This document shows, one piece after another, positions 11,426 through 24,544 of a stretch of DNA of 28,435 bases. The notes beneath the pieces were generated by a model, which searched no databases, had not been told where the DNA came from, and saw nothing but the letters and a program-made list of their open reading frames with translations. The DNA lies in the IMG/VR virus record IMGVR_UViG_3300027819_000151, positions 1 to 28,435 of that record. The stretch is one strand, 5' to 3'. The DNA comes from a virus. Taxonomy: Duplodnaviria > Caudoviricetes. A program made the translations under genes and the position numbers. How positions within the stretch are numbered: position 1 is the stretch's first letter; each line of letters starts with the position of its first letter.

Positions 11426-12028
11426 TCAGACACCCATATTTTTGCGAAACTTGCCGAGGAGATACCGCACGCCCATCGGCAATTCAGCTCTCGCGTTTTC
11501 GTCCACGGCTTCCCGGTTTGCGAACCAGTGCGCAATGCAAAGGTGCATCGCCTGCCTGATCGGCTCGGGCACTTCCTCGGGCGGCGAATCGTCGGACGGG
11601 TAACCGACCGTGTAGCGCACGCGCACCGAGTCCACGTCCGTGCGCGCTGACGGCCAGGACACGCCGTAGGCCAGCAGCAGTACTGACGCCCTTGCGTAGT
11701 CGCTGAAGCGGTATTGATCTGCTGCAAGCACGGTATCCACGCCGTCCGGGTCGAGATACTTCACCGACACGATGGAGCGTACCGGCCCGCCTGGCAGGTC
11801 GATAACGGATGCGAACGAGTTGCCGGCGATTTCCAGCGTTTTCGCTACCAGCGAAATTTCCAGTTCTTCCTCGCACGCCTGCCGCGCGGCCTTGATCAGC
11901 TTCGTGATGCGCGCGGCCTCGACGTAGGCAGGCGGCGAATTCGTATCCATTGCTGCGCGCACATTTTCACCAGCCTCGGCCAGGCTGATCGGCTCGGTCG
12001 TGCTTTCGGTGATGATCTTCGGTGTCAT
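11426..12028 (-). CDS. Head-tail connector protein (gp6-like, long type)
   Basis: Start MTPKIIT at 12028. Motifs EPISLAEA, LIKAARQ.CE, PV.SI.SVKY.D, VPEPIRQA....IAHWF.NREAV. Confidence 0.92.
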   Translation of the reverse strand: MTPKIITESTTEPISLAEAGENVRAAMDTNSPPAYVEAARITKLIKAARQACEEELEISLVAKTLEIAGNSFASVIDLPGGPVRSIVSVKYLDPDGVDTVLAADQYRFSDYARASVLLLAYGVSWPSARTDVDSVRVRYTVGYPSDDSPPEEVPEPIRQAMHLCIAHWFANREAVDENARAELPMGVRYLLGKFRKNMGV

Positions 12029-12618
12029 GCTGCAATCCTCTCGAAAGCAAGCCACGTATTTTCAACATGAACAATCTGCGCTCCCGCAGCGTGAAGTTCA
12101 TCCAACACTTCGCGCACATCTACCGTTCCCAGGTCGTGATAGTCGTGCCAGATCACAATACCGCCAGGTCGTGTCACAGCCCGCGCCAATTCCGTGTCGT
12201 GCAAAATAGCATCGCGACTATGGTCTCCATCGATGAACACCGCGTCGCATGGGTCAAGGTCGGATGCCGATAAGTCGAAAGAACCGCGCGGACGCAGGAT
12301 CAACTCGAATCTCGGATCATCGGCAGCCAACTCGCCCGGCCTGTCTGGAACCTCGTCACGTTGGACGCGCTTGGCGGGAATGTAGCCTTTCGGAACGTCG
12401 ATTCCTTGATAGCGTTCGATCCCCTGAACATTGCGCAGAATTGCCTTTGCCGTTCGTCCGGTATTGCAGCCAAATTCAAGCACTCCCTTTGGCTTGGAGC
12501 TTGCGACCAGCGCAATCAATGCCTCAAGCTCGCCCGGATTCATGTACCGCATTGGTAGGCCGGATAGGTCAACCGATATAACGTCAAGCTGCGATTTGTT
12601 GGCGGTCGGCAATGGCAT
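12025..12618 (-). CDS. Class I SAM-dependent methyltransferase (Methyltransf_24-like, probable O-methyltransferase)
   Basis: VLEFGCNTGRTA (motif I), DAVFIDGDHS, PGGIVIWHDY. Confidence 0.88.
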   Translation of the reverse strand: MPLPTANKSQLDVISVDLSGLPMRYMNPGELEALIALVASSKPKGVLEFGCNTGRTAKAILRNVQGIERYQGIDVPKGYIPAKRVQRDEVPDRPGELAADDPRFELILRPRGSFDLSASDLDPCDAVFIDGDHSRDAILHDTELARAVTRPGGIVIWHDYHDLGTVDVREVLDELHAAGAQIVHVENTWLAFERIAA

Positions 12619-14107
12619 CAAGAAACTCCGTTAAGTACCGCTCAGCGCGTGGCATGTCGATTTGCTTCCGGCAGGCGTGCATCTTGCTGAAACATTCGCA
12701 CGGCGTGATCGGCTGTATCCAATGGCAACGCGGGTCGCCGTGGTCATACAGGCGCGCAGATTCGTGACCGCCAAATACCGCTACCAGCGGCGTCTCGACC
12801 GCCTGCGCCAGGATGATCGCAAAGCCGGGGGAGCAGAACACAAGCCGCGCCTGCGCGGTCAATGCCGCCAACGTTTCGAAATCAAGCTCGCCACGGTGGC
12901 ATTCGGCGTCGGCGCCAATGTCCTGCCCGACCATCCATTCCTTTCGTGGCTCCAAATCGGCAACGGAGACCAAGAAACGGCCTTTTCGGGCGATCTGAGC
13001 CAGTTGCGCGTAGGCTGCATAGTCCGGGTTGCGTTGTGCACATCCTGCCCATTCGGTGCGGTCCACCAGTGGCCGGTAGATCATCAACGGCTTGCCCGGC
13101 TGCCACTTATCGAGCCATTCCTGCGCCTTTTCCTGCCAAGCGTCAGGAATTGGCAGCCGAAAGTCAGCCGGAACCACCTTAACCACGCTATTCGCCGCCA
13201 TCGCCCCAAGGAAGCTCCCGGTGGCGCGGATTTGGTCGTGGCTGTACCAAATTCTCTGCGGCATAACCGCTGGCGGCTTGCCATGAGCGTATTGCCCAAC
13301 CTCGCGCTTCGCGTTCTTGGCCTGCGTCCGTAAAGCTGTAGCTTTAGGCACCAGATGCACCGGCAGATCGTGAAAAACTGAGGGCCAGGGCGTTTCCAGC
13401 CAGACTTCGTGCGTCTGCACCAGTTTTCGCACAATTGCGCGCTCGTGCAGGTTGTCTCCCAAACCGTGCATCCCTTGCAGGTACAGCGGCGGCTTGCCAG
13501 GGATCAAAGCCTTGTCGATCGGCAGGCGTTCAAAACAGGTAATAGCCGTCTGCCGCGTAGCGTTGACTACCTCCACCCCACGCGCCCGAAGATCAATGCC
13601 GAGCTGCACCATCCGCCGCGTCCACTCCGGCATCGTGCCCAGGTTCGGCAGCCCGCCTTCGTGGTCGCCGTGATGATGGCTTTCCCCGCCAGGACCTCTC
13701 TGCATGTCATAACCGAGCAGGATGATCCGCGCTGCGCCCCACAGGTAAGCCAAGCCGATCGCCTGGTAGCCGCTATTTAGTCCGGTGTGAATCCGTCCCG
13801 GCTTGGTCGATAGGCCAGGCTCGTCAACCGCCTCGACATAATTGATACCCGCCATCCGTTCGGCGCACGTCCATAATTCGCTTGTCGTCTGTTCCGCCTC
13901 TGCGCCGTACACTCTCCACCAGCGAGCATCCGAGGCATAGAGCACATCCGCCCACGGCGCTTTCCGAAACGTCGTACAGACCGCGATTACATGCCGGTCT
14001 TGCGGCGCTTGCCCTCGCCATGTTTTGGTAAGTGCAACGTCTGCGTCGGTGAGTGATGGGCCGCTTGCAAGGCAGACAACGGTCGACCCGCGCCATCGTC
14101 CGCCACT
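12584..14107 (-). CDS. Two-domain glycosyltransferase-like protein; 5' part apparently reached by -1 frameshift from the upstream small gene
   Basis: The frame is open upstream of the GTG at 13945 and encodes RWRGSTVVCLASGPSL...VIAVCTTFRKAPWADVLYASD. Together with NSGYQAIGLAYLWGAARIILLGYDM this resembles a DUF115/Maf/sialyltransferase-like fold. The C-terminal half begins GMHGLGDNL (GT9-like GT-B). Confidence 0.75.
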   Translation of the reverse strand, partial: SGGRWRGSTVVCLASGPSLTDADVALTKTWRGQAPQDRHVIAVCTTFRKAPWADVLYASDARWWRVYGAEAEQTTSELWTCAERMAGINYVEAVDEPGLSTKPGRIHTGLNSGYQAIGLAYLWGAARIILLGYDMQRGPGGESHHHGDHEGGLPNLGTMPEWTRRMVQLGIDLRARGVEVVNATRQTAITCFERLPIDKALIPGKPPLYLQGMHGLGDNLHERAIVRKLVQTHEVWLETPWPSVFHDLPVHLVPKATALRTQAKNAKREVGQYAHGKPPAVMPQRIWYSHDQIRATGSFLGAMAANSVVKVVPADFRLPIPDAWQEKAQEWLDKWQPGKPLMIYRPLVDRTEWAGCAQRNPDYAAYAQLAQIARKGRFLVSVADLEPRKEWMVGQDIGADAECHRGELDFETLAALTAQARLVFCSPGFAIILAQAVETPLVAVFGGHESARLYDHGDPRCHWIQPITPCECFSKMHACRKQIDMPRAERYLTEFLDAIADRQQIAA

Positions 14108-14271
14108 TTTCCCACGACTTCCTTGTTCGATTGAGTTGTGAGCTTGATGCGTACCAGCCCGGCGCGCTCAAGGTCCCGTGCAAGACTGTTCTCAAGCATG
14201 ATGGGCCGACCCTCGTTCGCGCTTATGCGACCGTGTACAAAATCGGTGAGAGGAACTACTTCAACTTGCAT
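13987..14271 (-). CDS. Small capsid-adjacent protein (94 aa), putative head-associated module
   Basis: GGAG RBS then ATG at 14271. MQVEVVPLTDFVHG...EGRPIMLENSLARDLERAGLVRI resembles the small proteins that follow HK97-type capsid genes. Basic, low-complexity tail. Confidence 0.75.
   Translation of the reverse strand: MQVEVVPLTDFVHGRISANEGRPIMLENSLARDLERAGLVRIKLTTQSNKEVVGKVADDGAGRPLSALQAAHHSPTQTLHLPKHGEGKRRKTGM
14058..14113 (-). other. Putative programmed -1 frameshift signal: G GGA AAA plus H-type pseudoknot
   Basis: Heptamer at 14113-14107 is in frame (GTG GGA AAA). Stem GGCGGACGATGG/CCGTTGTCTGCC is 12 bp with 3 G-U pairs. Loop GGGTCG can pair with downstream CGGCCC. SD-like AAGGAAG lies just upstream. 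Confidence 0.75.
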
Positions 14272-14285
14272 GTGCGCATCTCCAG

Positions 14286-14322
14286 AAAAAAAGCCCGCCA
14301 GGCAATCACGCCCGGCGGGCTT
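14286..14322 (-). terminator. Intrinsic terminator after the major capsid gene
   Basis: Minus strand AAGCCCGCCGGGC-GTGATT-GCCTGGCGGGC followed by T7. Confidence 0.85.
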
Positions 14323-14339: not shown

Positions 14340-15536
14340 TTACGACCCGACCAGGTCGGCGTTCTTGACGAACGCTTCCGGCCGATAGGTCGCCAAAGCG
14401 AGGCGCTCTTCGCAGCGAATGGTGATCATGTTCTTCACGAAATCGTCTTCGTTTTGCGTTGCGATCACCACGTTGATCTCTTCACGATCGAAGAGTTGAG
14501 CGCCCATCTCGAACGCGCCGACGAGGGCGGTATCGACGGTCATCGCTTGCGTTGTCACCGCCGGACGGCCCCACAAGGAGGGTGTCGCCAGCGATTGCGG
14601 GTTCGCAAAGATGTACGCGCCAGTGCTTTCTTTCGTCAGCTCGATCGCAGCCCAGTCCGCCGGATTGAGAACGATTCCGGTTGCAGGGTACTCGGCGAGT
14701 TCCGACTGGAGAAGCATCAGCCGCAACACGTCGATTTTGGTCGGCGACGCAACCACAATTGGCGCGCTGTACGCGGTGGCTTGCGTATAGATGCCGTTCA
14801 GGTTGTTGCCGGAGCCAGAGCCCTTCAGCAACTGCGCCTCCTCCACCAACTTCAGGCCGTAACGCAAGCGGCCGTCGATGTTCGACTGGAGTTGAAGGAA
14901 GTCATCCAGGATCTGCTTCGATGCCTTGATGAAATGCGCGACCGTAACGACAGGCGACTGCACCCATTCGTAGGTGATGGTCGATTCCGGCTTCTTGACG
15001 GTCTCCGAAACCGTTGCAGCATTGTTGGTAAAGCCCGTTTCCCGAACATAGGAGATCATGTTCGATCCGGTGCGGCCCGGAGTGATGAGATCGCGCACGC
15101 GCAAACGCCGCTGTGTGCCCGGGACCAGGGGCTGTTGATCGGGCGCAACGCCAACCGTCGTAGTGTTGGTCGTATCGACGCTGGTGATCGCGGCCTTGAT
15201 CTGGTAGAGGAACCCGGACTGAACCGAGCGCATCCCACCGGACTCCAGCCACGCCTTGAACTCCGGCGACTCGGTAACATGCGCACCGAGCGAACGCACC
15301 GCGGCGATCTCATTGGCGCCGCGCCTCGCCGCTTTCTGCTCGACCTCGAGCAGCCGCGCCTGCAGCTCGCCCTGCTTGATCAGCAGTTCGTCAACTTTCG
15401 GCTTCATTTCCGCAGACATGTCGCCGTGTTTCTTGGCCTCGGCCAGCGCTTTTTCACCGGCCTCCTTGACCTGGTCGCCGATCTTTTTCAGTTCGGCCTT
15501 TACATCGTCGATCGTAAATTCGTTTGGTGCACCCAT
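14340..15536 (-). CDS. Major capsid protein, HK97 family
   Basis: 398 aa with coiled-coil delta domain. Motifs RLRVRDLI..G.T, E...KPES, ASKQILDD..QL, FVKNMITIRCEERLAL..YRPEAFV. Confidence 0.97.
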   Translation of the reverse strand: MGAPNEFTIDDVKAELKKIGDQVKEAGEKALAEAKKHGDMSAEMKPKVDELLIKQGELQARLLEVEQKAARRGANEIAAVRSLGAHVTESPEFKAWLESGGMRSVQSGFLYQIKAAITSVDTTNTTTVGVAPDQQPLVPGTQRRLRVRDLITPGRTGSNMISYVRETGFTNNAATVSETVKKPESTITYEWVQSPVVTVAHFIKASKQILDDFLQLQSNIDGRLRYGLKLVEEAQLLKGSGSGNNLNGIYTQATAYSAPIVVASPTKIDVLRLMLLQSELAEYPATGIVLNPADWAAIELTKESTGAYIFANPQSLATPSLWGRPAVTTQAMTVDTALVGAFEMGAQLFDREEINVVIATQNEDDFVKNMITIRCEERLALATYRPEAFVKNADLVGS

Positions 15537-19951: not shown

Positions 19952-20141
19952 GGTTGCCTAAAAATAGATGAAAAAAAGGTGCTTTTCGCTCCGAAAAATG
20001 AACATCGGCGTAAAAGGGGCGTAATCGACGTGTATGCGTTTTTCGAGCTTCGCCCTACTACCCTACCACCCTACCTGCGAAAAAAAGATCATCAATTCAA
20101 TAGCTTGGAAGTGCCATTTCCACCATGCTGCCGGAGAAAAC

Positions 20142-20335
20142 CATGCCACTTGCACCGCGTGGAACCGGGCACGTTTCTGGCCGCGTGCTCGCCGGAGAGC
20201 TTCATGCCACTTGTTCGCGCCGATGCAGTCAGACCCTCTGGCACGATCTAGGCCGCAGGCTCACCGGCGAGCCTCATGCCAACTCAGTGTGTCGCTGCCG
20301 TTGTCGCCCCTGGCACGATCAGCCCCGCGTGCTCG
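20142..20335. repeat. Degenerate 72-bp tandem repeat containing TGGCA(C/T)G boxes every 36 bp in alternating orientation
   Basis: GGGCACG at 20167, CATGCCA at 20203, TGGCACG at 20239, CATGCCA at 20275, TGGCACG at 20311. An extra CATGCCA is at 20142. CCGCGTGCTCG is also shared between units. Confidence 0.75.
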
Positions 20336-20340
20336 GCGGA

Positions 20341-20704
20341 AAATGGATGTAGTCCCTGACGTGCGCCGCGATTCGCTAGCGCCTCACATCCAAAGGAACG
20401 TGCTATCTGGCACCACGATTAGCTCTGACGAAATGAACAGCTATCGCCAGCTTGTGCGCCTTGGTTACATACACGGCATGAGGTTAATCACCACAAAGAC
20501 GAATATGTGAATGGTATTCACCACGTCAACGGCATAGAGGGCTTTTGGTCGCACCTGAAACGTGGGATCAAAAGCACTCACGCTTCTGTGTCACCGAAAT
20601 ATCTACAGCGGTATGTAGATGAATTCGCGTTCCGCTACAACAACCGGCAAGCGCCCGCCGCTATGTTTAGCAGGATGCCGAAGCAGTTTTCCAAGCCAAA
20701 CTAA
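20341..20704 (+). pseudogene. IS1595-family transposase remnant (5'-truncated, frameshifted)
   Basis: VPDV.R.SL.PHI..NV..GTTISSDE..SY..L...GY.H, then a frameshift near 20480, then VNH..DEYV.G..HVNGIEGFWSHLKRGI..TH..VSPKYLQRYVDEFAFRYNNR. Confidence 0.9.
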
Positions 20705-20716
20705 TTTCTTTAATCA

Positions 20717-20920
20717 CTACTTGCCTTTGCTCTTGTGAGCAAAGGCTTCTTTTATTCGTTCTTCTGCCTTATAACTTCGGGGTTGCGCTTGGGACAATTG
20801 GTGACCTGAGATAATCGCAATTGGCGGGTATTGATAAACAATAAACCGCTTATCTGGAGTCCAATCTTTCGGCGCATTAGATGATTTGACGCCTGCGTTA
20901 AGTTGCCTTAGTTCAAGCAT
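20717..20920 (-). CDS. Hypothetical protein (67 aa)
   Basis: ATG 3 nt after the stop of the protease gene, in the AT-rich island. No recognisable motif. Confidence 0.45.
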   Translation of the reverse strand: MLELRQLNAGVKSSNAPKDWTPDKRFIVYQYPPIAIISGHQLSQAQPRSYKAEERIKEAFAHKSKGK

Positions 20921-20923
20921 GGA

Positions 20924-21775
20924 TTAGCTCTCTCGATTAAATTCCGCAGAATAATAATGCTTGCGCGTTACCCATTTGAAACCTTCGTGCTTAGTAATAG
21001 TTGCCACTTCAATTGGCCCGCCCACAGTGGGTGCTCGTAAACTAAATTGCGTGAATTTTGCAGCAGTATCAGCAAGAAAGTAAGCCAAATCTATTGCATC
21101 CTGGATTGGCATTGCGGGTAAATGTAGCGGTACACATAGCTTGTTTATTAATTCATCCCTTGTATCAGTGGCGATCTTAGGATCAAGCCCAAGCTGCACC
21201 AATGCCTCATGAGCCCGACTTCCCAAGCCAAGAATTAAACGATCAAGAGCCTCGGTCTCACCTGCCCAACGAGGGCCAAAATGACTATCTTCATAAATTC
21301 GGTTGGGGCCTTCGCATTTGTCTCCATTAATCAGTATCTCCCACACTTCTGGTAATACTGATCCAGCAGAATATCCGCAAACTCTGTATCCCATGTAATA
21401 GTTTGGAACACCGTTTGGATATTCCTTAACGTAACATTCGTCAAACAAAAATTTCTTGGCTTTCGCTGCCACATCTTCAATCGTGTAAGACATCGGGTCA
21501 AGTTCATATTCCCCCTTCTGGTAATGCGGTGCCATGAATTGCGGGGGCGTAAGCTTTTCCCGAAGGTCTTTTGACAGGGTAGCAATCGACGCCGAACCTA
21601 TACCGCCACTACCGTATGTCATAGCCCCTATCGGCCAAACTTTGACAAGATTGAATATTTTGTTGGCATTGTTGTAAACCTTTACAACGGCACCAGCAGG
21701 ATCAACAAACGAAGTCGCGCTATCAGCGGCAAGAACAACACCGTCATTAACTCTAATTGTGACGACTATCGTCAT
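20924..21775 (-). CDS. Proteasome beta-subunit-like Ntn hydrolase (Thr1 protease)
   Basis: Start M-T-IVVTIRVNDGVVLAADS (Thr1, LAADS), NANKIF (catalytic Lys position), C-terminal TVGGPIEVATI. Confidence 0.8.
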   Translation of the reverse strand: MTIVVTIRVNDGVVLAADSATSFVDPAGAVVKVYNNANKIFNLVKVWPIGAMTYGSGGIGSASIATLSKDLREKLTPPQFMAPHYQKGEYELDPMSYTIEDVAAKAKKFLFDECYVKEYPNGVPNYYMGYRVCGYSAGSVLPEVWEILINGDKCEGPNRIYEDSHFGPRWAGETEALDRLILGLGSRAHEALVQLGLDPKIATDTRDELINKLCVPLHLPAMPIQDAIDLAYFLADTAAKFTQFSLRAPTVGGPIEVATITKHEGFKWVTRKHYYSAEFNRES

Positions 21776-21950
21776 GGGGTCTTTGAGGAAAAGACGTGGA
21801 TTTCGACCCCAATATAGCATCGTCTAGAAGCTGCTCAAACGCCTTCTTGTGGTCTAGCGATTCCGCAGGATCGGGAAGGCACTTAGGTTTCATCCGTTTC
21901 GGCAAAACCTTTCTTTTTACTTCTTTTTTTGGCTTCAGTCCAGCCCCCAT
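21753..21950 (-). CDS. Small basic hypothetical protein (65 aa)
   Basis: Lys/Pro-rich N-terminus and helical HKKAFEQLLDDAI. Overlaps the start of the protease gene. Confidence 0.5.
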   Translation of the reverse strand: MGAGLKPKKEVKRKVLPKRMKPKCLPDPAESLDHKKAFEQLLDDAILGSKSTSFPQRPHDDSRHN

Positions 21951-22061
21951 GTCTTTGATAGTAAACAGCTAATTTATGCAAACCGCCGCAATTTGTAGTA
22001 GGCTTTACCCATTACTTGTACTCAAGTATTTTTTAACCACATGATTTGGTAGGAGAACCTC

Positions 22062-22076
22062 ATGAGGAAAGTTTAA
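22062..22076 (+). other. Minigene ATG AGG AAA GTT TAA with strong RBS
   Basis: AGGAGA at 22051-22056, 5 nt before the ATG. Followed immediately by a GC-rich hairpin at 22077-22116. Confidence 0.4.
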
Positions 22077-22182
22077 GCCTTCGCGTCCCACGCGGGACAC
22101 CACCGACGCGAAAGGCACAAAAAGTAAGACCCGCATAAGCGAACTCTTGGCGGAGAACTTATACGGGTCTTGGTGGCGCAAC

Positions 22183-22250
22183 GGGGCGGGTTTGGTAACG
22201 GGGAGAGACTCCTAATCACTGACCCAAGGGTTCAATTCCCTTCCGCTCCA
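22183..22250 (+). tRNA. Non-canonical tRNA-Arg(CCT)-like RNA
   Basis: Acceptor GGGGCGG/CCGCTCC plus A. T arm AAGGG-TTCAATT-CCCTT. Anticodon arm AGAGA-CTCCTAA-TCACT (one mismatch). Shortened D region GTT-TGGT-AAC. 68 nt. Confidence 0.6.
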
Positions 22251-22306
22251 TTTTCTATAACAACGCTTTTGATAGTGGCCTAACTTAGCTTACCCTGTCA
22301 AGAGCA

Positions 22307-22322
22307 CTGTATAAAAGGACAG
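22307..22322. promoter_or_regulatory. LexA (SOS) box
   Basis: CTGT-ATAAAAGG-ACAG matches CTGT-N8-ACAG and overlaps the RBS of the downstream small gene. Confidence 0.7.
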
Positions 22323-22326
22323 TATC

Positions 22327-22467
22327 ATGAGCAAGAAACAAGGCAACGAAACAACTGGCAAGAAAGCTGCAAGCAATGCGGGTAAGGTTCTCAATAACCC
22401 TAACTCGTCTAAGGCCGCGAAGTCTGCTGCCGCTTCTGCTTTAACCCAGGTATCGAAGAAGAAGTAA
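22327..22467 (+). CDS. Small basic protein (46 aa)
   Basis: Below the ORF-track cutoff. AAGGA RBS. MSKKQGNETTGKKAASNAGKVLNNPNSSKAAKSAAASALTQVSKKK resembles a widespread small hypothetical family (T.K.AAS.A.KVL..P..SK..KS.A.SALTQ). Confidence 0.8.
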   Translation: MSKKQGNETTGKKAASNAGKVLNNPNSSKAAKSAAASALTQVSKKK

Positions 22468-22481
22468 GCGTAGTTTGTTTT

Positions 22482-22526
22482 AGCACAGCAACGCGGGGTA
22501 TCACTATTACCCCCGTTGCTTGTGCT
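22482..22526. terminator. Long hairpin between convergent genes, probable terminator
   Basis: AGCACAGCAACGCGGGGTA-TCACTAT-TACCCCCGTTGCTTGTGCT. Confidence 0.6.
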
Positions 22527-22563: not shown

Positions 22564-23283
22564 TTACATCGTCACCGCCGTCGCCTCTGGCACGATCTTC
22601 TCCGCGTCGAGTGCGCTCACCGCGAGTTCAGCGAGGAGCCGCAGTGCGACCGCGTTGTTGATCACTTTCTTTTCCTGCTTGACGCGCACGATTGCATCGA
22701 AGAGCGCATTGAACGTCGCCAACTCACCGACCAGGACCTGCGCCTTCTTGCTCGCCTCGATGCGCGCGAGGAAATCGATGAAAGCCGTTTTCTCCTCGGG
22801 CAGAAAAAGGATCGTCAGTTCCTCGTATTTCGGCCGCGTGATGCCGAGGGCCGCGAGCTTCTCGTCGGTGCACTTGAAGGCGTCGTCGGTGACGCCGCTA
22901 TATTGCTTCCACTCCAGCGACTTCATGCTGGTATAGAGCTGCGCCAGGATGTTCGGGTCGTCCTTGCCGTTGATCGCGTTCTGCGACAACTGGATCGCCA
23001 GGCGCCGTTCTTCGCTCAACTCGCTCAGAACGTCCAGCACGTCGGCCTCTTCGATCCCAGCCTTGATCGCGGCGCGCACGCGGTGATTGCCGCTCAGCAC
23101 TTCGCCGCGATAGACGACTGGCACACCCATCAGCTTCCCGTCCTGCTTGATGTTGGCGACGAGCTGGCTAAACTCCTGCGGCGTCATGTAGCGCGCGTTC
23201 TTCTCCAGCAGCTTCAACTCGCGCAGTTTGACCTTGACGATCCGGCTTTCCACCTTGTCCAGCGTATTTTCGGAGCCATTCAT
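22564..23283 (-). CDS. ParB/Srx-like N-terminal domain protein
   Basis: ELK.LEKNARYM....F..LV.NI..DG, P.V, VLSGNHRVRAA...G, LS.NAI.G.DDP. Confidence 0.88.
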   Translation of the reverse strand: MNGSENTLDKVESRIVKVKLRELKLLEKNARYMTPQEFSQLVANIKQDGKLMGVPVVYRGEVLSGNHRVRAAIKAGIEEADVLDVLSELSEERRLAIQLSQNAINGKDDPNILAQLYTSMKSLEWKQYSGVTDDAFKCTDEKLAALGITRPKYEELTILFLPEEKTAFIDFLARIEASKKAQVLVGELATFNALFDAIVRVKQEKKVINNAVALRLLAELAVSALDAEKIVPEATAVTM

Positions 23284-24544
23284 TGAACACTTCCTGGATA
23301 GATTGGTTGCGAATTGACGACTGGTACTGCAGGTGATCGGCGGTGCGCTTGGCCAATTCGAATATCCCGCGGTACTTCATGGAAACGGGCTTGGTCGTGA
23401 ACGCCGTGGTCACGATGTATTCGACCCTGATCAGCAGCCGGCGGTTGATCGGATCGATCACGTCCCGGCAGGCCGCGATCATCGGTATCAGTTTCGATAG
23501 CCTGCGTTCACGCGAGACTGAGAAATCCGAGAGCATGTAAAGCTCGCGCGTCTTATCGCCGAATCGCGTTTGCGCGAAGATGAATCCGCCGGCAAGCGCG
23601 CCATCGATCAGCACCAGGCAGTTGAACTGGCCGGTTGTGTGTTCAATGCCTTTGGCGAGGTAGACGTTTTTCAGATACGTCATCCGTTTGCCATCGACGA
23701 CGCACACAGATACCTTGCTCTCGGCCGTAATCGCGGCAGGATCGACCGCGGCGTATTTGAACTGCACTTCATTCGGCAGCCGGCGCCGCAGCGACGCGGC
23801 CTGATTGCTCGAATAGGTATAGACCGGCTTGTTCGAGCCGCGCCATTCCGTTGTCGGCGTGCGATCGGCGAGCAACTGATCCGAGATCACGCAGTACGGA
23901 ATACCCCGCTGCTCAAGCGAGGCGATGAACCCCGGCAGCGAATCGGGATTCCAGATTCCGTATTTCGGCGCGGGCCAGTCGACGTTTTCGTTCACGAGCT
24001 TGTAGATCCGCTCATAGCCGCCTTTGTAGGTCGGCGCAAAGCACGCGACACCGCCACCGCTGCGTTCGGCCCGGTCCACCTGCTCGGTGAAGTCGCCGGG
24101 GTAGAACTCCTCGATCTTGATTTCCGACACCAGCGTCGCGAGCTTGGGCAGCGCCTGATCCACGAACGTCCTGAAGCGCTCACGGTAGTGTCGGTAGTGC
24201 ACCTGGGCGTACTCGTTCTTGCCAGTGAACTGGCCCATCGCGCACGCCACCATCACGGCCGCCACGCGCCCACGGAAGTCCAGGCCGGCGATTGCGGGTT
24301 CGACGAACTCAAGATCGCCCTTGAACCGGATATCGAACTCGCGCCCCATCGCGAGTGCACCGATGCTGCAGGTGAGTAGCGACACGTCGTTCGAATAGAC
24401 GCGGCAGCCGGGGTGCCGCATCTTCACCGCGCGATCAAAGCGGAAGCTGCCCGAACACCCCACATACACGTCGCCCCACTCATCAAACGGCACCGTGGCG
24501 AGCACCTGTCCGACGACCTCTTTTGGGACGGCGCCGATGAACAT
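23168..24544 (-). CDS. Putative DNA-modification enzyme: adenine methyltransferase-like N-terminus plus GNAT/Mom-like C-terminus
   Basis: DVYVGCSGSF (motif I-like), SNDVS (motif II-like), FAPTYKGGYE (DPPY-like). C-terminal LVLIDG.LAGGFIF..LYMLSDF.V...RRLSKL...TTAFTTKPVSMKYRG.F. Confidence 0.65.
   Translation of the reverse strand: MFIGAVPKEVVGQVLATVPFDEWGDVYVGCSGSFRFDRAVKMRHPGCRVYSNDVSLLTCSIGALAMGREFDIRFKGDLEFVEPAIAGLDFRGRVAAVMVACAMGQFTGKNEYAQVHYRHYRERFRTFVDQALPKLATLVSEIKIEEFYPGDFTEQVDRAERSGGGVACFAPTYKGGYERIYKLVNENVDWPAPKYGIWNPDSLPGFIASLEQRGIPYCVISDQLLADRTPTTEWRGSNKPVYTYSSNQAASLRRRLPNEVQFKYAAVDPAAITAESKVSVCVVDGKRMTYLKNVYLAKGIEHTTGQFNCLVLIDGALAGGFIFAQTRFGDKTRELYMLSDFSVSRERRLSKLIPMIAACRDVIDPINRRLLIRVEYIVTTAFTTKPVSMKYRGIFELAKRTADHLQYQSSIRNQSIQEVFNEWLRKYAGQGGKPDRQGQTARVEAAGEERALHDAAGV

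Follow-up and report, generated by a model that had tools for sequence, protein, structure and literature searches.

The gene for gpFI of phage lambda directly follows the capsid gene, and the protein has a separate N-terminal DNA-binding domain ahead of its head-binding domain. The gpFI protein bridges the capsid and terminase-DNA (PMC13595911), and in TP901-1 a -1 shift has been proposed to connect a gpFI-like protein with the capsid protein, a proposal that found no confirmation in a Western blot (Popovic 2012; PMC4493119). The motif classes of bacterial -1 frameshifts include the X XXY YYZ heptamer and the Z_ZZN tetramer (PMC4066793). In phage structural genes, -1 frameshifts are described for lambda G/GT, T3, A2, T7 and the Listeria phages A118 and A500, where a slip on X XXY YYZ gives a minor, C-terminally extended morphogenesis product, and the capsid extensions of T3 and A2 bear Ig-like domains (PMC5009743). 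Glycosyltransferases of the mycobacteriophages Che8, Corndog and Myrna modify capsid and tail-tube proteins (Freeman 2023; PMC12363180); these phages are actinobacterial, and neither a frameshift nor a head-binding tag is mentioned in the available account.

The same gene order as described here is found in the Pseudomonas phage D3, where orf6.5 and orf7 (PHROG 7993 and PHROG 4603) belong to the series capsid gene, small gene, overlapping enzyme gene and connector gene, with an in-phase C CCA AAG and an enzyme domain of about 44% identity. The D3 record differs in that it lists two separate hypothetical genes, with an internal start for orf7 and the frameshift unmarked, and in that the D3 enzyme has the Maf-like domain only, with a GT9-like gene located further downstream. 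Homologs of the D3 enzyme are carried by PMG1 and PP9W2. The text of a cryo-EM study of the D3 virion, in which nine capsid subunits were modelled, contains no match for “glyc,” “gp7” or “frameshift.”

Here, we analyzed a stretch of 28,435 nucleotides from a virus in the Caudoviricetes (IMG/VR record IMGVR_UViG_3300027819_000151), hereafter the window. A preliminary description of the locus had proposed that a -1 frameshift fuses a small capsid-adjacent protein to a glycosyltransferase-like enzyme. The features under consideration are the following:

11426..12055, minus strand: head-tail adaptor gene (phrog_442, E 5e-24), the downstream boundary of the cassette
12025..12621, minus strand: SAM-dependent methyltransferase (PF13578, E 2e-12), overlapping the end of the enzyme
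12584..13501, minus strand: GT-B domain, GT9/TibC-like (phrog_6804), part 2 of the -1 frame
13496..14107, minus strand: Maf/GT42-like Rossmann domain (phrog_4603), part 1 of the -1 frame
13987..14271, minus strand: small post-capsid gene of 94 aa, an ORF from ATG 14271, with GGAG at 14283-14280
14058..14104, minus strand: candidate H-type pseudoknot with stems 1 and 2
14107..14113, minus strand: slippery heptamer G GGA AAA, which falls into the codons of the small gene as X XXY YYZ
14118..14124, minus strand: SD-like AAGGAAG, seen in the sequence
14286..14320, minus strand: hairpin followed by T7, an intrinsic-terminator-like candidate read by eye, separating the capsid gene from the small gene
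14340..15536, minus strand: HK97-type major capsid protein of 398 aa (PF05065, E 2e-50; phrog_10)

The -1 frame is opened by a TGA at 14170-14168 and runs from 14167 to 12584, with the GTG at 13945 as its first ATG, GTG or TTG. Both WRGSTVVCLASGPSL and APWADVLYASD sit in this frame, with only an ACG at 14152 and an ATC at 14131 upstream of the motif. We could thus confirm that the 453-aa ORF lacks its N-terminal motif and that no ATG, GTG or TTG lies between the TGA and the motif. Relative to the folded domain, this ORF begins at residue 51, with two core strands missing and the invariant residues A10, G12 and S14 absent; the first two strands and the GPS loop of the Maf-like domain are encoded upstream of GTG 13945. 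The motif-bearing N-terminus is likewise missing from 73 of the 83 database homologs with the N-domain, which points to a systematic annotation error.

The 94-aa protein starts with a domain (residues 1-45) resembling the gpFI C-terminal domain and the L9 N-terminal domain, which a linker connects to a basic tail; the part of the gene that encodes the tail overlaps the 5' end of the enzyme frame. At its distance of 158 nt from the start codon of the small gene, the heptamer GGGAAAA (14113-14107) reads G GGA AAA, and a -1 slip at this site leads to a product of 55 + 507 = 562 aa; the sequence agrees with the preliminary description on both points. Among ten other genes in the window, X XXY YYZ (Y = A/T) occurs in phase at 2 of 4632 codons, and from these genes the chance of an in-phase heptamer per stretch of 33 codons is about 1.4%. 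Judged by these counts, the G GGA AAA at the small gene is more than a chance occurrence.

Homologous loci, in which conservation of the heptamer was to be expected if the proposal was correct, were compared across 99 usable clusters of relatives (46 capsid-linked, 52 other). An in-phase slippery heptamer was present in 31 of the 46 capsid-linked clusters versus 6 of the 52 others (Fisher p 9e-9, a value that is overstated since kin are not independent), while the other two phases of the capsid-linked clusters contained one in 8/46 and 7/46 clusters, respectively. The 31 in-phase sites comprise 16 different heptamer sequences. Of the 15 capsid-linked clusters that lack a heptamer, 12 have an in-phase Z_ZZN, which is common by chance, and three (L083, L198 and L205) have neither motif. 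An overlap between the small gene and the enzyme frame is retained in 45 of the 46 capsid-linked clusters. Of 39 clusters with matches to the small domain, 38 have them in the frame that requires a -1 shift, one has them in frame and none has them in the third frame; this test is partly circular since the small-domain profile was built from 24 of the same loci. In several relatives (L004, L085, L147, L174 and L207), the enzyme frame has a stop directly before the slippery run, and the change of frame is thereby confined to that site. Natural in-frame fusions of the small domain to a complete enzyme domain, which had also been suggested as a check, were found in 44 of 240 database proteins, representing 31 clusters, with two of the fusion proteins (P0031 and P0034) matching phrog_2616, phrog_4603 and phrog_6804.

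The conserved phase with a changing heptamer, the missing starts, the stop-pinned relatives and the natural fusions thus provide strong support for the frameshift, and on this comparative evidence we consider a ribosomal -1 shift very probably real. One alternative is that the enzyme is translated from a non-canonical or internal start of its own (ACG 14152, ATC 14131, GTG 13945 or a GTG/TTG as in D3) and that the heptamer is incidental. The D3 lineage indeed has an in-frame GTG/TTG 13 codons before a Trp, and a possible own start is present in 6 of the 46 capsid-linked clusters, as compared to 45 of the 52 others. We nevertheless find this explanation very improbable, because the ACG and ATC in the window have no preceding SD, a start at GTG 13945 would remove the Rossmann core, the stop located right before the slippery run leaves no room for a start in several relatives, and one member of the D3 lineage (L074) lacks the GTG/TTG mentioned above yet keeps C CCA AAG. 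Slippage of the RNA polymerase rather than of the ribosome is suggested by runs of A7-A10 or T6-T9 in some relatives (L038, L174 and L194), but is even less probable, since most sites (GGGAAAA, CCCAAAG, CCCTTTG, GGGAAAC, AAACCCC) have runs of only three to four bases and since heptamers are enriched in one codon phase only, which a slipping polymerase would not require.

We also considered the possibility of an assembly indel or a decaying pseudogene, given that the window comes from one virus record of metagenomic origin, 52% complete, and that contigs rather than raw reads were compared. Contigs from three runs in other studies (X3, X8 and X11) bridge the site without gaps, and no substitution is listed for them in 14055-14127; two further contigs (X1 and X2) were left out of this check because they may come from the source sample. 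The agreement of the contigs from three other studies and the occurrence of the same frame relation in 38 clusters, as well as in sequenced isolates such as D3, effectively refute an error or a pseudogene.

The preliminary description had additionally pointed to stimulators of the shift, and these were confirmed as sequence features but not as elements shared across the family. No common SD was seen when the upstream 22 nt of 14 sequences were compared by eye, and the role of AAGGAAG is doubtful because it is not conserved in the relatives; a conserved SD stimulator is thus not supported. The 12-bp stem (14104-14093/14082-14071), the loop GGGTCG (14089-14084) and the CGGCCC (14063-14058) are all present, with the core of stem 1 formed by 14101-14093 with 14082-14074 and stem 2 by 14089-14085 with 14062-14058. 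Within the clade of the window (13 sequences), 99.1% of the cells in stem 1 and 92.3% in stem 2 are paired, with one base pair having two compensatory changes; 96.7% of the cells are paired in this clade, a value reached by 6 of 500 shuffles, while slid controls gave 26-56%. The folding energy of the hairpin in the window is ordinary, both in comparison with shuffles (z -0.47; 56 of 200 equally stable) and with synonymous recodings (z -0.04). A pseudoknot or hairpin common to the family is not supported, since the family as a whole shows no surplus of folding past the site (mean z -0.01; other class -0.30; p 0.30) and the pairing in stem 2 was no better in the capsid-linked than in the other loci (3.5/8 versus 3.8/8). 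The alignments thus support the candidate pseudoknot within the clade of the window only.

What could be the function of the small domain? The top Foldseek match is the C-terminal domain of lambda gpFI, 2LSM (E 0.039, prob 1.0), which is also matched by the profile of the small domain (E 0.062), and as in lambda the gene has the capsid gene as its immediate upstream neighbor. Judged by its E-value the gpFI match is a weak one, and in a structural comparison with VIA 2LSM (Z 5.3, rmsd 1.4, 43 aligned, rank 10) is level with domains of GINS, primase and L9. No Pfam family matches the small protein, FI included, and since its domain is located at residues 1-45 we regard it as gpFI-like in function at most, and not as a member of the family. 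In contrast to lambda gpFI and the TP901-1 protein, the domain is N-terminal, a basic tail follows, and the shift occurs after the domain and appends an enzyme. The predicted complex of the small domain with the capsid protein scored 0.66, as compared to 0.00 for the best of three controls, with agreement among the runs in 100% of the contacts and a partner pLDDT of 83; the mark applied to this score, which is only roughly valid here, was attained by 116 out of 157 pairs with a solved structure and by 2 out of 215 mismatched ones. The predicted interface on the capsid protein is a Gly-rich loop at about residues 234-251. The complex was predicted with one capsid chain and a similar solved complex was not excluded, and in the shell the docking site may be filled by a neighboring subunit. 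These models lend support to the earlier suggestion that the small domain is a capsid-docking tag, and we judge a gpFI-type fold with capsid binding to be probable.

Maf is a flagellin glycosyltransferase. The first part of the -1 frame (model pLDDT 95) resembles Maf 5MU5 (Z 16.4, rmsd 2.7, 174 aligned), of which only the central domain was matched (270-512 of the 632-residue chain), the GT42 enzyme CstI 2P56 (Z 10.2), the diphosphokinase MptE 8SD5 (Z 11.3) and ST3Gal sialyltransferases. The second part matches 3TOV (Z 19.4), TibC 4RAP (Z 19.0, rmsd 2.8, 254 aligned) and WaaF 1PSW (Z 17.2), and has a C-terminal Cys/His cluster; TibC is aligned from residue 93 and thus without the N-terminal beta-barrel which, along with a four-Cys iron finger, characterizes the BAHT heptosyltransferases. 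What the enzyme shares with Maf, CstI, TibC and the GT9 proteins are domain folds, at 11-16% identity. Curated cut-offs were not reached by PF01973 for part 1 (17.9 versus 34.6 bits), nor by PF01075 (13.1 versus 22 bits) or TIGR02195 and TIGR02201 (13-14 versus 135-170 bits) for the GT-B domain; the enzyme profile had no significant match among the PDB sequences, and the matches in the ESM Atlas are unnamed viral clusters, some of them MptE-like. The best match of the N-domain (Maf) and the second-best of the C-domain (TibC) are both protein glycosyltransferases, TibC being a protein heptosyltransferase (PMC4358343). The glycosyltransferase-like nature of the enzyme thus finds support in the folds, but there are two enzyme domains rather than one, and the product of the -1 frame is predicted to be a two-domain glycosyltransferase, Maf-like and GT9/TibC-like. 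The adjoining methyltransferase, which some relatives carry as a fusion with the enzyme (long homologs bearing PF13578) and which has a weak match to TIGR04371 (E 0.007), is likely a sugar O-methyltransferase.

Even with a real frameshift, the N-domain may not be a glycosyltransferase but an MptE-like diphosphotransferase or sugar-tailoring enzyme, considering that 20 of 24 members match the MptE-like family PF01973 at E up to 0.05, or the small domain, with a fold common to GINS, primase and L9, may be a mere translation leader. Both ideas are improbable: Maf scores higher than MptE and sialyltransferases are among the matches, the GT-B domain and the methyltransferase adjoin, and the small domain not only passed the prediction of the capsid complex but is kept in the 31 clusters of in-frame fusions, where a leader would be superfluous.

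We hypothesize that a minority of ribosomes would shift to the -1 frame at the slippery site, thereby swapping the basic tail for the two-domain enzyme while the N-terminal capsid-docking domain is retained. A few enzyme molecules, substoichiometric on the head, would then be tethered to the assembling particle, where they would likely glycosylate a virion protein, the acceptor being perhaps the capsid protein or another head or neck protein. The unshifted 94-aa product may act like gpFI, with its basic tail linking head and DNA. The Maf-like domain could add a nucleotide-activated sugar, possibly of the CMP-nonulosonate/Kdo type, the GT-B domain could add or extend another sugar and the methyltransferase could cap the glycan. 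We lean toward such a head-docked, frameshift-tethered glycosyltransferase acting on the virion, a reading that we consider somewhat probable.

Alternatively, the tag may bind heads but the enzyme, carried by the head or only co-expressed with it, may modify DNA or the glycans or proteins of the host surface (LPS, flagellin, pilin), or the frameshift may mainly keep the dose low. The top match of the GT-B domain is to LPS-type GT9 enzymes (3TOV; WaaF 1PSW), the D3 structure paper mentions no glycan, and some standalone copies are located away from the head genes, such as in phiNP, where the enzyme gene sits between the lysis and terminase genes. Since 45 of the 52 clusters that are not capsid-linked have a start of their own, the enzyme can evidently do without the tag in places. 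Yet we regard a target outside the virion as unlikely, since the cassette lies between the capsid and connector genes in a late operon, a time at which the host surface would hardly be remodelled, the overlap is so consistently kept in the capsid-linked clusters, and Maf and TibC act on proteins. GenBank labels a standalone homolog as “structural protein” in PAJU2 and as “head morphogenesis” in P7.

Whether a widespread virion-glycosylation system, with a gpFI-like packaging helper, equipped with a DNA-binding tail, and a head-docked enzyme produced from one gene, exists in HK97-type phages including D3 is in our view an evenly balanced question. If so, frameshifting would set the ratio of enzyme to helper and bring the enzyme to its substrate, a new use in which an enzyme is joined to a targeting domain rather than a structural protein being made longer; in the available accounts of known phage frameshifts the appended part is Ig-like or a chaperone, whereas here an accessory post-capsid gene shifts and appends an enzyme of 200-670 aa. 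Lineages would alternate between frameshifted, fused and free forms of the enzyme, although we claim no order of events because 45 of the 95 inner branches are open in our tree, a quick version from which L218 was omitted as too short. It would also explain why most database copies of the enzyme are annotated without the N-terminus, and capsid glycosylation would reach beyond the actinobacterial phages, with glycosylated virions predicted in D3-like Pseudomonas phages as well as in numerous environmental ones, a prediction with consequences for phage recognition by hosts and antibodies. D3, which is in culture and has cryo-EM maps, offers a direct test of the arrangement. The literature covered by our search contains no description of the frameshift, and the preliminary description, too, knew of none.

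A DNA-pattern scan for members of the clade gave 36 matches, mostly unrelated, with one new member (L257/L277), and a scan with the 94-aa protein gave three loci, one of which was already in the set while two were not this cassette. The small domain is represented by 698 clusters, and its alignment is too variable to serve in a locus scan. On the question of other cargo, a search for longer proteins returned only two, which is weak evidence. No integrase was found in the record, as far as its 52% completeness extends. Finally, the terminator-like hairpin that precedes the small gene would reduce the expression of genes beyond the capsid gene.

The window is a virus record of 28.4 kb, 52% complete; its minus strand carries a head module of the HK97 type with the following cassette, in order of transcription.

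15536-14340, minus: major capsid gene (HK97-type), first in the cassette
between the capsid gene and the 94-aa gene, minus: hairpin plus T7
14271-13987, minus: small gene, 94 aa
ending at 12584, minus: enzyme frame (-1)
12621-12025, minus: methyltransferase gene, next after the enzyme frame
after the methyltransferase gene, minus: head-tail adaptor gene, which closes the cassette

The preliminary description proposed that a -1 frameshift joins a capsid-docking tag to a glycosyltransferase-like enzyme, and every sequence element that it named (heptamer, open -1 frame, absent start, 562-aa product) is found in the window. GGGAAAA at 14113-14107 parses as G GGA AAA in the small-gene frame, the -1 frame opens past a TGA at 14170-14168 with its first ATG/GTG/TTG only at 13945, and slippage yields 55 + 507 = 562 aa. 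Ten other window genes, 4632 codons in all, contain 2 in-phase heptamers (Y = A/T). PHROG 4603 (Maf-like domain) aligns from profile position 1, beginning 41 codons 5' of the GTG at 13945; the C-terminal half matches PHROG 6804 (GT9-like domain). When the -1 product (503 aa) is modelled with AlphaFold (pLDDT 95), the conventional 453-aa ORF begins at residue 51; it thus misses two core strands as well as the invariant residues A10, G12 and S14, and seems unlikely to fold alone. An assembly indel had been raised as a concern; contigs from three other studies (X3, X8 and X11; contigs, not raw reads) cross the site without a gap.

Conservation was assessed in 253 loci plus the window, obtained with many duplicates from searches (the best 80 of 140 matches, 7 matches, the best 80 of 100, and the best 80 of 564, two of these already in the set) and from 8 phage records hand-picked from 73 matches. 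The ASGPS motif of the enzyme domain served as anchor in 241 of 254 loci, which formed 102 clusters at 70% identity; the 99 with at least 250 nt upstream were used. Classes were assigned blind to the heptamer, a small-domain match or a capsid gene within 600 nt defining 46 capsid-linked clusters beside 52 others and one in-frame fusion. An in-phase X XXY YYZ (Y = A, T or C) at most 90 nt from the anchor was present in 31/46 capsid-linked versus 6/52 other clusters, and in the other two phases in only 8/46 and 7/46 capsid-linked clusters, whereas a conventional start codon was present in 6/46 versus 45/52. The Fisher values for these class contrasts (p = 9e-9 and 8e-14) exaggerate the case because of kinship among the relatives. 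As 16 different heptamers occur, phase and position are conserved despite sequence turnover. The small domain lies in the frame requiring -1 in 38 of 39 clusters with a match, a partly circular count, the profile having been built from 24 of these loci, and at five loci (L004, L085, L147, L174, L207) a stop shuts the enzyme frame immediately 5' of the slippery run.

The absence of a heptamer in 15 of the 46 capsid-linked clusters counts against the proposal. Twelve of these carry an in-phase tetramer, which in five is C_CCU located as in the window; the remaining 3 show neither element. The C_CCU of L011, L018, L020, L106 and L220 lies 42 nt before the anchor codon, where the window has A_AAA; C_CCY is described as a functional shift motif in E. 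coli (PMC4066793).

Natural in-frame fusions, which the preliminary description had named as a check, do exist. At locus L012, the small domain and the enzyme are encoded in a single frame, and L011 is its sister in the tree (support 89). We examined 240 database proteins, 120 listed of 907 matches and 120 listed of 1730, the latter enriched for fusions because the search was seeded with one; in 44 (31 clusters at 70%), one being L012's own product, an N-terminal small-domain match precedes a complete enzyme domain. P0031 and P0034 match PHROG 2616, 4603 and 6804 in order, the full architecture predicted for the 562-aa product. The motif-bearing start is missing in 73 of 83 N-domain proteins among the matches listed (120 of 907), which is what one would expect if gene prediction overlooks the shift. 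Pseudomonas phage D3 shows the arrangement in orf6.5/orf7, with C CCA AAG and an annotation as two genes; the proposal is testable in this phage. Taken together, these data make a programmed -1 frameshift very probable.

Loci L082 (PAJU2), L086 (P7), L084, L087 and L088 have standalone homologs that begin with a start codon of their own, jumbo phages being among the carriers; that of PAJU2 (ORF010, "structural protein") sits after the head-tail adaptor, and that of P7 is HdmB. Longer variants include P0008, P0013, P0050 and P0055, the last two also with the tag in frame; in some of the proteins a methyltransferase domain is fused to the Maf-like and GT9-like ones, and the enzyme frames of L003, L004 and L014 span 657-675 codons.

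The stimulatory elements fared less evenly. The sequences that would pair in the proposed H-type pseudoknot are present in the window, and in its clade (13 distinct sequences) the 9-bp stem 1 is paired at 99.1% and the 5-bp stem 2 at 92.3%, with one pair varying between G-C, C-G and U-A. This pairing score was equalled by 6 of 500 shuffles, although relatedness alone can produce such a result and the structure was drawn from the window sequence. Neither the window nor the family as a whole (mean z -0.01) shows a remarkable folding energy, and stem 2 was not found conserved outside the clade, so that the pseudoknot is a plausible clade-level feature rather than an established one. The SD-like AAGGAAG is present in the window but not shared by relatives.

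Residues 1-45 of the small gene are predicted to fold as a beta-beta-alpha-beta domain (pLDDT 80), with the C-terminal domain of lambda gpFI (2LSM) as the best Foldseek match (E 0.039), also recovered by profile search (E 0.062). 2LSM ties with GINS, primase and L9 domains, which have the same fold; gpFI is the phage member of this set. The C-terminal domain of gpFI is reportedly the head-binding one, as attributed to Popovic in 2012. When residues 1-48 were co-folded with residues 110-398 of the capsid protein, the predicted complex scored 0.66, whereas the best of 3 controls scored 0.00; contacts agreed at 100% between runs and the partner pLDDT was 83; the score mark is reached by 116/157 solved and 2/215 mismatched pairs and is only roughly valid with the alignments used here. 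The model places the tag at a Gly-rich loop (KGSGSGNNLNG) that we take to be the outer-surface G-loop in HK97, and in the assembled shell a neighbouring subunit may occupy it. On these models, docking of the small domain on the capsid protein is likely. gpFI itself is described as bridging capsid and terminase-DNA (PMC13595911).

The small-domain family comprises 698 clusters at 50%. The unshifted tail (window 14106-13987, minus, and relatives) overlaps the 5' end of the enzyme and stays open at least 10 codons past the anchor in 45/46 capsid-linked versus 17/52 other clusters. Its last 15 residues have a K+R fraction of 0.32, RGR/GRP/GRK endings occur in 11, and the C-terminal end is basic in 94 of 144 small-protein representatives. 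This openness and the basic ends suggest a selected DNA-binding tail within a dual-coding stretch. In P0199 (399 aa; no Pfam match) the order is reversed, with an unclassified enzyme-like part before the small domain and tail in frame, while P0215 (388 aa) has about four small-domain repeats and matches DUF7210 and, weakly, DUF7302, linking the tag to both.

Enzyme residues 1-200 best match the central domain of a Maf glycosyltransferase (5MU5; Z 16.4, rmsd 2.7, 174 aligned), followed by MptE (Z 11.3) and the sialyltransferase CstI (Z 10.2). Maf glycosylates flagellin. Residues 199-496 match GT9 (3TOV, Z 19.4), TibC (4RAP, Z 19.0, rmsd 2.8), described as a protein heptosylation enzyme (PMC4358343), and WaaF (Z 17.2); the enzyme scores fall below curated family cut-offs. 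The appended part is the Maf-like domain alone (about 185-245 codons) in 38/46 capsid-linked clusters and a GT9-like gene is seen in 12/46, which marks the Maf-like domain as the core cargo of the shift.

We suggest that most ribosomes would produce the 94-aa gpFI-like helper, while a minority, slipping at G GGA AAA, would yield a head-docked enzyme that most likely glycosylates a virion protein, the glycan perhaps being tailored by the methyltransferase. Virion glycosylation is known in mycobacteriophages (as cited in PMC12363180). The main rival is that the shift is real and the target is not a virion protein. The cryo-EM study of D3, in its available part, models capsid subunits only and mentions neither glycan, gp7 (the orf7 product) nor frameshift (PMC12749128). 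A stoichiometric decoration is therefore less likely, though one that is transient or sparse would be compatible with this. We consider this rival rather improbable, and the combination of shift, head docking and virion-protein glycosylation somewhat favoured.

In known phage frameshifts, as far as the available parts of the sources extend, the lengthened product is a tail chaperone or a capsid or tail protein (PMC5009743, PMC3711429, PMC10885494, PMC4066793), whereas here the appended part is a predicted glycosyltransferase. In an earlier proposal, cited second-hand in PMC4493119, a -1 shift joins a gpFI-like domain to the capsid protein itself, whereas here the tag precedes the shift and an enzyme is appended. 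The accessible part of PMC11445458 deals with gpFII alone and has no bearing. No account of a frameshift joining a gpFI-like tag to a glycosyltransferase was found in the literature covered, which consists of partial texts and takes in few subscription papers; we regard it as a real and conserved variant of programmed -1 frameshifting, apparently undescribed.

Elsewhere in the window, a site at 9262-9256 was singled out within 9564-8936 (minus). A low-GC stretch at about 20000-22500 includes a 298-aa ORF (20924-21820, minus, starting MTIVVTIRVNDGVVLAADS) that by eye resembles a proteasome-type Ntn hydrolase, and a nearby short ORF (20507-20704) looks like a transposase remnant. Upstream of the terminase region, neighbouring 458-aa and 239-aa ORFs (22564-24544, minus) look by eye like DNA-modification and ParB-like genes.
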